From the IMG/VR virus record IMGVR_UViG_2617270964_000016, positions 1 to 37,320 of that record: a stretch of DNA of 37,320 bases. One strand, given 5' to 3'. The stretch is from a virus. Lineage: Duplodnaviria > Heunggongvirae > Uroviricota > Caudoviricetes. The notes beneath the pieces are model-generated. The model worked only from the letters and a program-made list of their open reading frames with translations. It was not told the DNA's origin and did no database searches. Numbering within the stretch: the first letter of the stretch is position 1; every line of letters starts with the position of its first letter. Below are positions 6,980 to 7,593 of the stretch, one piece after another. A program made the position numbers and the translations under genes.

Positions 6980-7593
6980 TTTGCTGCTCCTCATCATATC
7001 GACCCTGCAAGGTCGGTTGGTTTCTCCACAAAACAGAGAAGAACACCTGCGGTGGCAGCCGCCCGGATGGATTGGGTTATGAGCCCGTCGTCCGGTGATG
7101 CTCTTCTCTGTTTTGTAAAAAGAGCGGTACCAGCCGGAAGCAAGTGTACAAACTGGTACCGCCAAAGCAGTGGCTGTTGTGGTGACCGGTGCTGATCTCC
7201 GGCTTGCGGTTATTTCAGACTCTCACGGGCGTTTAATTGCCCCGCCGAACAGCTCTTTTCCGCAATAGCTGCAATGTCTTTCGCGCATCAGCCTGCGCAT
7301 TCACCACAACGCTGAGAGCACTTAGCCAGTTACGGCACCACACTTTGTCGCGGTTCCATAAATGCCCTCATCGTTGCACCCTGGTCTCTTCCCAGGTGTC
7401 AAACCGAACCGCCACGCTGGTTAGGCGTCTTATCAGCATCATCATTGACTTGCACATTCCGGCTACCTGGTTTGTTTGCCCGAGCAAGGAGTGGATTGTC
7501 CCCTTTAACGTCCCCAGACCGCTAACGACGCATGTGCCATACGCCGTGTTACAACCAAATTTTGTTTAATCTTGCCTGTGACATGTTTCTTTT

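Follow-up and report, generated by a model that had tools for sequence, protein, structure and literature searches.

What is the role of a perfect inverted repeat in the leader of a phage early operon? We addressed this question for a stretch of 37,320 nucleotides (hereafter the window; positions 1 to 37,320 of IMG/VR record IMGVR_UViG_2617270964_000016) from a virus of the class Caudoviricetes, in which two arms, ACAAAACAGAGAAGA (7028-7042) and TCTTCTCTGTTTTGT (7102-7116), are perfectly complementary over 15 bp within the leader of the leftward early (PL) transcript. Our analysis showed that this repeat is the closing helix (P1) of a conserved three-way-junction RNA, located between a terminator and the first ribosome-binding site of the early-left genes. 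It also brought out the main feature of the locus, which the preliminary description had overlooked: the spacer between the arms holds a copy of the anticodon stem-loop of the initiator tRNA, and relatives of the element are found in phage tRNA arrays. The spacer (7043-7101) is 59 nt long with a G+C content of 66%, compared with 51% for the window, and the arms and spacer are present in the sequence as they had been described. This is the sole perfect inverted repeat of at least 15 bp with a spacer of at most 100 nt in the window, and none of that size occurred in 100 dinucleotide-preserving shuffles; the preliminary description had called a chance origin very unlikely. The window has just one other long perfect inverted repeat, a 13-bp palindrome with a 1-nt spacer (17788-17800 and 17802-17814) at the start of an open reading frame (ORF; 17797-18180) downstream of the lysis genes.

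When the region is folded as minus-strand RNA, the minimum free energy (MFE) is -51.2 kcal/mol (z = -7.7 against shuffles), compared with -46.6 kcal/mol (z = -5.2) for plus-strand RNA. In the minus-strand fold the repeat lengthens to a helix of 20 bp (7116-7097 paired with 7047-7028), of which the outer 15 bp are the reported repeat, and the result agrees with the long stem and structured interior that had been expected of the leftward transcript. P1 encloses two hairpins, P2 and P3 (Table 1), with a single unpaired A between P1 and P2 and another between P3 and the 3' strand of P1. Five to seven extra pairs are possible between the U-run upstream and GGAGA; the conserved GGAGAAAC can pair with the U-run of the terminator to give a P1 of 25-27 bp, and this extension is predicted for most homologues. 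A covariance model of the element (R1) has a single match in the window, at 7020-7124 on the minus strand (122.9 bits). The repeat had also been placed in the PL leader, about 50 nt before the start codon of a YfdP-like gene, and this is borne out by the promoter, the cI repressor context, and the distance of 48 nt from the end of the 3' arm to the ATG of the yfdP-like ORF (6979-6977, minus strand).

The preliminary description had named the comparison with homologues, for conservation and compensatory changes, as a point on which its reading would turn, and such changes were found in the related prophages. MFE folds of 66 distinct homologues, each computed independently, gave the same three-way junction. 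We then assessed covariation in an alignment (A2) of 34 distinct sequences of the type found in PL leaders (PL-type), for which the consensus structure was set by hand. Standard pairs fill 93.9% of the cells of this alignment, a value that falls to 40-55% when the partners are slid by one to three columns. Both sides change in 11 of the 34 pairs, and the observed covariation score was reached by none of 500 shuffles. In P1, 95.4% of the cells are paired and six pairs change on both sides among the 34 homologues, with exchanges that include C-G to A-U, G-C to C-G, and A-U to G-C; a G-C to A-U exchange was found in P2, and three of the four basal pairs of P3 covary. A U.G wobble in P1 (7098 with 7046) is retained in 33 of the 34 sequences. 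In an ungapped alignment of 31 distinct P2 hairpins from all classes, five of the seven lower-stem pairs change on both sides, and the upper 22 nt are almost invariant across the same hairpins. The length of the element varies through P3 (105, 106, 107, 109, 124, 128, 130, and 132 nt). These steps are not multiples of three, and therefore neither strand keeps a reading frame through the element, which makes it unlikely that annotations of the ymfH type (discussed below) represent real genes.

Pair counts in the alignment amount to 93.9% for the minus strand and 91.0% for the plus strand, or 96.2% and 90.7% when one C.A position is left out. As this difference is weak, the strand assignment is mostly contextual, and it rests on the orientation of the element, which is always that of the operon around it, on the U.G wobble, and on the CCA-ended array relatives, which lie on the tRNA strand. 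We consider it very probable that the element is a functional structured RNA of the minus strand.

Four functions had been offered for the repeat, and two of them, an RNA processing site and a riboregulator, are still compatible with these results, while a terminator and a protein-binding recombination site are not supported. The 3' arm has no U-tract, there is no U-run on either strand (GGAGAAAC follows on the minus strand and AAAAAGAG on the plus strand), and a terminator scan did not call the repeat itself. The real terminator-like hairpin lies directly 5' of the element (7163-7117), and its stem and loop (7163-7123) with the U5 that follows fit the criteria for intrinsic terminators. In 64 of the 65 distinct PL-type homologues, a G+C-rich stem of at least 6 bp and a U-run abut P1 in the same way. 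The terminator, which draws on at least seven unrelated stem sequences in these homologues, is conserved as a structure. A DNA site for recombination is unlikely in view of the pairing constraint in three helices, the near-invariant U.G pair, and the orientation, which always follows transcription. A further hairpin, P4, between the element and the ribosome-binding site is kept in most PL-type homologues with differing stems and a (U/G)GCA loop. Many homologues from outside E. coli have a P3 with a UUGCAG loop, as in P4 (UGCA or UUGCAG), a likeness that hints at one factor able to bind both hairpin loops; the P3 of this window has the reverse complement version (CUGCCA).

To return to the spacer, the tip of P2 contains a run of 14 nt, CGGGCUCAUAACCC, that is identical at 14 of 14 positions to the anticodon stem-loop of E. 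coli tRNA-fMet. This is the longest run common to the element and tRNA-fMet, and the longest in 2000 shuffles was at most 11 nt. We verified the tRNA-fMet gene sequence used here against the 5426 complete E. coli genomes: each of them has it at no less than 99% identity, the median copy number is four, and the annotation is tRNA-Met. Aligned by eye, tRNA positions 26-43 are identical to the element at 16 of 18 positions. The two differences, at positions 27 and 42, turn both upper stem pairs (27-43 and 28-42) into mismatches, and the three consecutive G-C pairs (29-31 with 39-41) and the CUCAUAA loop are retained. Three consecutive G-C pairs together with a CAU loop are the hallmarks of the initiator tRNA, and the G-C pairs are the feature of it that is read by the P site of the 30S ribosomal subunit and by initiation factor 3 (IF3). 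The arm of the element thus has the 7-nt loop, U33, the purine at position 37, the three G-C pairs, and the CAU of an initiator anticodon arm. Across nearly all homologues the GGG-CUCAUAA-CCC tip is invariant while P1, P3, and the base of P2 diverge. Scans that demanded another base at each anticodon position returned few lineages, namely one phage with CCU, four with UAU or AAU, and a decayed copy in prophage e14 of E. coli K-12. Because loop variants are so rare, we conclude that the loop is under sequence-specific selection that goes beyond a purely structural role, and we think it rather likely that mimicry of the initiator tRNA is what selection maintains.

Relatives of the element occur in a second setting. 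Late operons of lambdoid phages of the Klebsiella type carry the same core (GAUGACGGGCUCAUAAUCCAAUCCAUC) between Q and the lysis genes, as the final member of an array composed of tRNA-Asn, -Phe, -Thr, and -Arg. A gap of 5-6 nt separates this array-type element from the CCA of the tRNA before it, which is on the same strand; the tRNAs themselves are spaced in the same way. Its P1 is just 6 bp long and resembles an acceptor stem (GGCCUG/CAGGCC), its P3 covaries, position 39 is U in place of C, and an (A/G)CCA 3' end is encoded in 17 of the 18 distinct array-type sequences; there is no D-loop and no T-loop. These relatives look like substrates of RNase P. In Pantoea phages, a copy with a long P1 is found in the late leader after a tR'-like terminator, and one viral contig has both forms, the PL type ahead of a DUF2303 gene and the array type behind NinG and Q. 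The operons with the element are antiterminated or read through, and it follows their first terminator. The window itself has no second copy in its late leader, between Q (14784-15536) and the lysis genes, when the model search is run with filters off. In three metagenome contigs (L189, L254, and L276) the invariant GACGGGCUCAUAACCCAAUCCA core stands on another P2 base with no recognisable P1 or P3, in L189 just before a holin-like ORF, and the minimal unit of the element family may be the P2 hairpin alone. A Klebsiella-type viral contig (L018, 3747-3825, plus strand) also has a short, terminator-ended transcript upstream of its tRNA array, whose last unit is the array-type element, and this transcript matches the Rfam family isrJ with 59.8 bits; isrJ may be a short late-leader RNA of the PR' type.

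The element is widespread. Of the 5426 complete E. coli genomes, 2809 have a match to its 106-nt region (one copy in the median, five at most), and nearly all of these copies are chromosomal. Phage records that carry it include mEp460, cdtI, Stx2c and Stx2a phages, SfV, SfII, SfIV, Salmonella ST64B, and Citrobacter phiNP, among others, and throughout these records it lies between the repressor and a yfdP-like gene. Pattern scans found it on at least 119 viral contigs and at least 120 metagenome contigs. It is also present in 24 species-representative genomes, of which 23 are Enterobacterales (Citrobacter, Enterobacter, Kosakonia, Leclercia, Mixta, Phytobacter, Raoultella, Erwinia, Pantoea, Klebsiella, Buttiauxella, Pseudescherichia, Pseudocitrobacter, Escherichia, and Shigella), and the remaining record is titled Chryseobacterium sp. 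The terminator, the element, GGAGAAAC, and P4 together precede differing first genes, including yfdP-like genes, xisE in e14, and others. Because of these differing downstream genes and the breakpoints of homology on the flanks, we regard the four parts as a cassette that behaves as a portable unit.

The copy in prophage e14 is 84% identical to that of the window and lies within the annotated ORF ymfH, directly upstream of xisE-intE. In our e14 sequence (L003), ymfH (2472-2783) covers the whole copy on the sense strand. A ymfH clone has been reported as a trigger of RcaT, the toxin of retron-Sen2 (bioRxiv 10.1101/2020.06.22.160242, preprint), and it might be the RNA, instead of a YmfH protein, that is responsible for this triggering.

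Our preferred reading of the element, about which we are slightly more doubtful than convinced, is that of a released tRNA-like module that acts through its mimic of the initiator anticodon arm. The primary transcript would release the module in both forms. For the PL form we envisage a cut by RNase III in P1, whose length of 20 bp, extendable to 25-27 bp, matches the roughly two turns (20 bp or more) of mostly regular double-stranded RNA that this enzyme acts on. The upstream leader would then end in the terminator hairpin, and the mRNA would start near P4 as a protective 5' hairpin, a kind of structure that stabilises mRNAs. Release of the array form would fall to RNase P together with the tRNA 3'-end enzymes. 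Taken by itself, excision from the transcript is a step that we hold with somewhat less confidence still. The invariant anticodon-arm mimic would then be presented in trans to a host factor that reads the anticodon arm of the initiator tRNA. The known readers of this arm are the 30S P site with IF3, methionyl-tRNA synthetase, and PIN toxins of the VapC family. We would place the tRNA(fMet)-specific VapC-type PIN endonucleases of enterobacterial plasmids first among these, with the RNA as a decoy or competitive substrate, and the 30S P site second. VapC homologues are present on at least 5000 plasmid records, some of them annotated as 'tRNA(fMet)-specific endonuclease VapC', and these records come mostly from Klebsiella, Escherichia, Salmonella, Shigella, Enterobacter, and Citrobacter, which are genera with the element. 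A VapC-type nuclease ranks first among the specific partners at a probability that we consider low.

It has been suggested that the tRNA arrays of phages serve to counter anticodon nucleases (PMC10264068). It is an improbable idea that a phage-encoded mimic of the initiator anticodon arm, made early (PL) or late (arrays), shields translation initiation from tRNA(fMet) nucleases such as plasmid VapC, and, if true, this would be the first viral RNA countermeasure against initiator-tRNA cleavage. A bolder variant, which is speculative, is that the CCA-ended array form is methionylated and serves as a minimal nuclease-resistant initiator, with U39 adjoining the VapC cut site.

Several observations weigh against the released module. 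Neither form is a working canonical tRNA, a cloverleaf with a D-arm, a T-arm, and an acceptor stem of 7 bp: ARAGORN calls no tRNA in the window or in the array-type copies, and the Rfam tRNA model has no match to the window region or to an array-type copy even at E<=10. The PL-leader form has no CCA after P1 and lacks the D- and T-loops, and the mismatched upper pairs of its P2 tip could abolish recognition by some tRNA-binding factors. It is also not obvious how effective a stoichiometric decoy would be against a catalytic nuclease. With a terminator directly upstream, the element is present only in read-through transcripts, so that the amount of RNA made is limited, and no N-like antiterminator was found. 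Pair counts alone barely separate the two strands. Finally, a simple role in processing or stability explains the position of the element equally well.

This last point leads to the main rival overall, a contender to be taken seriously even if we place it on the unlikely side, in which the cassette serves purely in cis, for processing and stability, much as the RNase III site in the leader of lambda N does. Here a cut in P1 would remove the long untranslated leader, free the ribosome-binding site from long-range occlusion, and leave a stable mRNA capped by P4, and the likeness to tRNA would be an evolutionary relic without any function. Lambdoid PL leaders do carry RNase III sites (the lambda N leader and sib), the P1 of 20 bp (25-27 with the extension) suffices for RNase III, and the cassette is always found between a terminator and the first ribosome-binding site, moving with differing genes. 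In the MFE fold of 6975-7180, moreover, the leader segment GCCACUGCUUU (7164-7174) pairs with the Shine-Dalgarno and AUG region (6975-6992, minus strand), so that cleavage of P1 could affect this possible occlusion; the segment is particular to this variant. What such a cassette leaves unexplained is the invariance of the 7-nt loop and the bases next to it against the drift of all three helices, and the existence of array relatives that have a 6-bp P1, a CCA end, and a terminator before the next gene.

A cis-acting translational operator is rather less probable. The initiator-like arm would in this case dock in the 30S P site or bind a protein that binds initiator tRNA, beside the ribosome-binding site, and so govern the initiation of the first early-left gene, in the manner of the thrS operator with its mimicry of tRNA-Thr. 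The PL-type element does lie 48-70 nt upstream of a start codon and has the three G-C pairs that the 30S P site and IF3 read, and many yfdP-like genes begin with AUGAG, which is complementary to CUCAU of the loop. The context of the start codon is variable, however (AUGGC in this window), the downstream genes differ, and array-type and late-leader copies are found 150-500 nt from the next ORF, often with a terminator in between.

Less probable again, and in our view very unlikely, is a role in transcription, be it as the terminator itself or as an antitermination RNA that modifies RNA polymerase (like put or nut/boxA) in phages that lack N. The leader contains no N-like gene, and the copies lie in PL and late operons, the types that need antitermination in lambdoid phages, with one contig having both; the tail of the terminator in this window, CGCUCUUUUUACAA, even resembles boxA. 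This boxA-like string is not conserved, however, as homologues have CGCCCUUUUU, GCACCUUUUUU, and others in its place. The repeat has no U-tract, the element lies downstream of the terminator and not upstream, and nothing in this scheme gives a reason for tRNA mimicry or for membership in tRNA arrays. A nut site of the lambda type, which consists of boxA and a boxB hairpin and goes with an N protein that has an arginine-rich motif, was rejected on the same grounds, with a CGCUCUUUA-like boxA found in some variants only and no N-like ORF in the leader. We also rejected a put RNA of the HK022 kind, as the putL region of HK022 differs in sequence, shape, and position, and model R1 has no match in the HK022 loci.

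Explanations at the DNA level or without function (a miniature transposable element, a leftover tRNA attachment site, a palindrome bound by a protein, or a ymfH-like protein gene) can claim the perfect terminal repeats, the tRNA-derived string, and the annotations that place a 'hypothetical protein' or YmfH over the element, but they are highly improbable given that the copies are confined to two homologous settings, number one per genome in the median, and lack a target-site duplication, that the identity to tRNA-fMet is confined to the anticodon arm at a site internal to the prophage, that the compensatory changes, G.U pairs, and three nested helices point to RNA, and that the length changes do not keep a frame. 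A miniature inverted-repeat transposable element was considered specifically and rejected: such elements have many copies in unrelated contexts with target-site duplications, whereas E. coli genomes have a median of one copy here, and the flanks are conserved and belong without exception to the PL or late leaders of prophages.

A number of other identities were also examined. A hammerhead or other ribozyme, which the CUGAUGA of the array-type copies had brought to mind, was rejected because there is no GAAA core and no Rfam match. No Rfam family matches the element when the whole window is searched at the gathering score, and a search of the region and an array-type copy at E<=10 returned only a chance match of 14.5 bits to the hairpin ribozyme. 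The prophage small RNAs (sRNAs) svsR, at the 3' end of cI, and co293, near int, have other positions, and a paper on the Pas sRNA had no bearing on the element. We found no description of the element in the literature on ymfH, on tRNA-like prophage RNAs, or on initiator-tRNA cleavage in phage defence.

There are nonetheless several known systems with which the element shares features. Like the site in the lambda N leader and sib, it has a long helix in the PL transcript near the early-left genes, with plausible roles in detaching the leader or tuning expression. Its sequence is unrelated to these sites, however, its helix forms the base of a three-way junction that includes an invariant tRNA-like arm, and cleavage is here only predicted. 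The thrS operator of E. coli is likewise a 5'-leader hairpin, and it imitates the anticodon stem-loop of a single tRNA. It differs in being bound by its own synthetase for autoregulation, whereas the element is found in phage operons with changing downstream genes, mimics the initiator, and occurs also away from ribosome-binding sites. With the HK022 put RNAs it has in common that both are structured RNAs in early operons of lambdoid phages without N. The put RNAs consist of two stem-loops of about 70 nt, located downstream of the promoter and upstream of terminators, and putL and putR are similar to each other (PMC9378689); the element, in contrast, is a three-way junction that comes after a terminator. 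The T4 species 1 and 2 RNAs and the phage tRNA arrays (PMC10264068) offer a parallel to the array-type relatives, which have tRNA spacing, a CCA end, and the last place in Asn/Phe/Thr/Arg arrays. In contrast to the tRNAs of such clusters, these relatives have no D- or T-loops and leave tRNA finders silent, and the copy in the window, which has a 20-bp P1 and lacks CCA, is part of an mRNA leader. Partial mimicry of tRNA for processing or the recruitment of proteins is also shared with the tRNA-like domain of transfer-messenger RNA, the Y-RNA-like YrlA RNAs, and the RNase P-processed C4 precursor of P1 and P7, but these mimic the half of the tRNA with the acceptor and T-arm, and the element mimics the anticodon arm.

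By the evidence available here, the element represents an undescribed and very widespread RNA family of the broad tRNA-like or tRNA-mimicking kind, with a new architecture and context. More than half of the complete E. coli genomes, including K-12, carry it without an RNA annotation, and in places it bears the label of a hypothetical protein (YmfH). Should the mimicry prove functional, it would point to an RNA-based interplay of temperate phages with the machinery that reads or destroys initiator tRNA, and would tie together phage tRNA arrays, the toxin-antitoxin nucleases of plasmids, and early phage gene control. Either way, there is now a covariance model for annotation, ORFs of the ymfH type can be flagged as probably spurious, and there is an explanation at the RNA level to test for the triggering of the retron toxin by the ymfH clone.

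Table 1. Coordinates of the RNA element and of the features around it in the window.
Feature	Position	Strand	Basis or remark
Whole three-way-junction RNA, P1-P2-P3, about 89 nt	7028-7116	-	MFE fold; bounded by the 15-bp repeat
P1, 5' strand ACAAAACAGAGAAGAGCAUC	7097-7116	-	20 pairs with 7028-7047; holds one repeat arm
P1, 3' strand GGUGUUCUUCUCUGUUUUGU	7028-7047	-	Holds the other repeat arm
P2	7063-7095	-	7-bp lower stem (7095-7089 with 7069-7063), internal loop AC / AAUC, anticodon-arm-like tip
P2 tip hairpin GGG-CUCAUAA-CCC	7074-7086	-	Three G-C pairs, 7-nt loop, CAU at the anticodon position
P3 hairpin GCGG-CUGCCA-CCGC	7049-7062	-	Length and sequence differ among homologues
Intrinsic-terminator-like hairpin	7117-7163	-	13-bp stem (7163-7151 with 7135-7123), then CUUUUU (7122-7117); abuts P1
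Conserved GGAGAAAC directly 3' of P1	7020-7027	-	Alignment
P4 hairpin CGACCU-UGCA-GGGUCG	7000-7015	-	Between the element and the ribosome-binding site
Shine-Dalgarno GAGGAG (6992-6987) and ATG (6979-6977) of the first early-left gene	6977-6992	-	Read from the sequence
First early-left gene, yfdP-like ORF	6617-6979	-	YfdP annotation in homologous phage records
Operator-like inverted repeat	7583-7621		Overlaps the PL-like promoter
PL-like sigma-70 promoter, near-consensus TTGACA-16-CATAAT	7627-7600	-	Promoter scan, 11/12 matches
cI terminator	7654-7637		Directly after cI
S24/LexA-type cI repressor	7666-8340	-
YdaS/Cro-like gene and CII (CP76) gene		rightward
Q antiterminator	14784-15536

The leftward transcript has its source in the PL-like promoter, which lies just downstream of cI and the cI terminator. 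From this promoter to the ATG of the first early-left gene there are about 610 nt without a credible ORF, and the yfdP-like ORF is followed by a DUF2303/yfdQ-like gene and then a YfbR-like gene. No N-like gene was found in the leader or elsewhere in the phage of this window, and neither SfV nor e14 has arginine-rich ORFs in its leader. About 430 nt of the leader lie upstream of the terminator (7170-7600, minus strand), and the ORFs in this stretch are of 36-39 codons only; SfV and e14 have unrelated ORFs of about 100 aa (orf33 and ymfJ) in its place. Homology to other phages breaks at about 7165, 7192, 7313, and 7566, and for this reason we consider the leader itself to be mosaic.

Searches of the immunity region gave some further matches. 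On the plus strand, opposite the cI terminator (7591-7664), there is a weak, sub-threshold likeness to the Salmonella sRNAs STnc50 and STnc370. The sRNA svsR was placed in 2026 at the 3' end of cI in an SfV-like prophage, on the positive strand of that paper's map (PMC12803456). Two Rfam families match above the gathering score, isrK at 9583-9659 (plus strand, 61.2 bits) and the C4 antisense RNA at 9684-9771 (plus strand, 80.7 bits), and both fall within the region of an Ash-family ORF (9223-10059), which points to a secondary immunity module of the P1/P7 C4-ant type adjoining the cI/cro/cII region.

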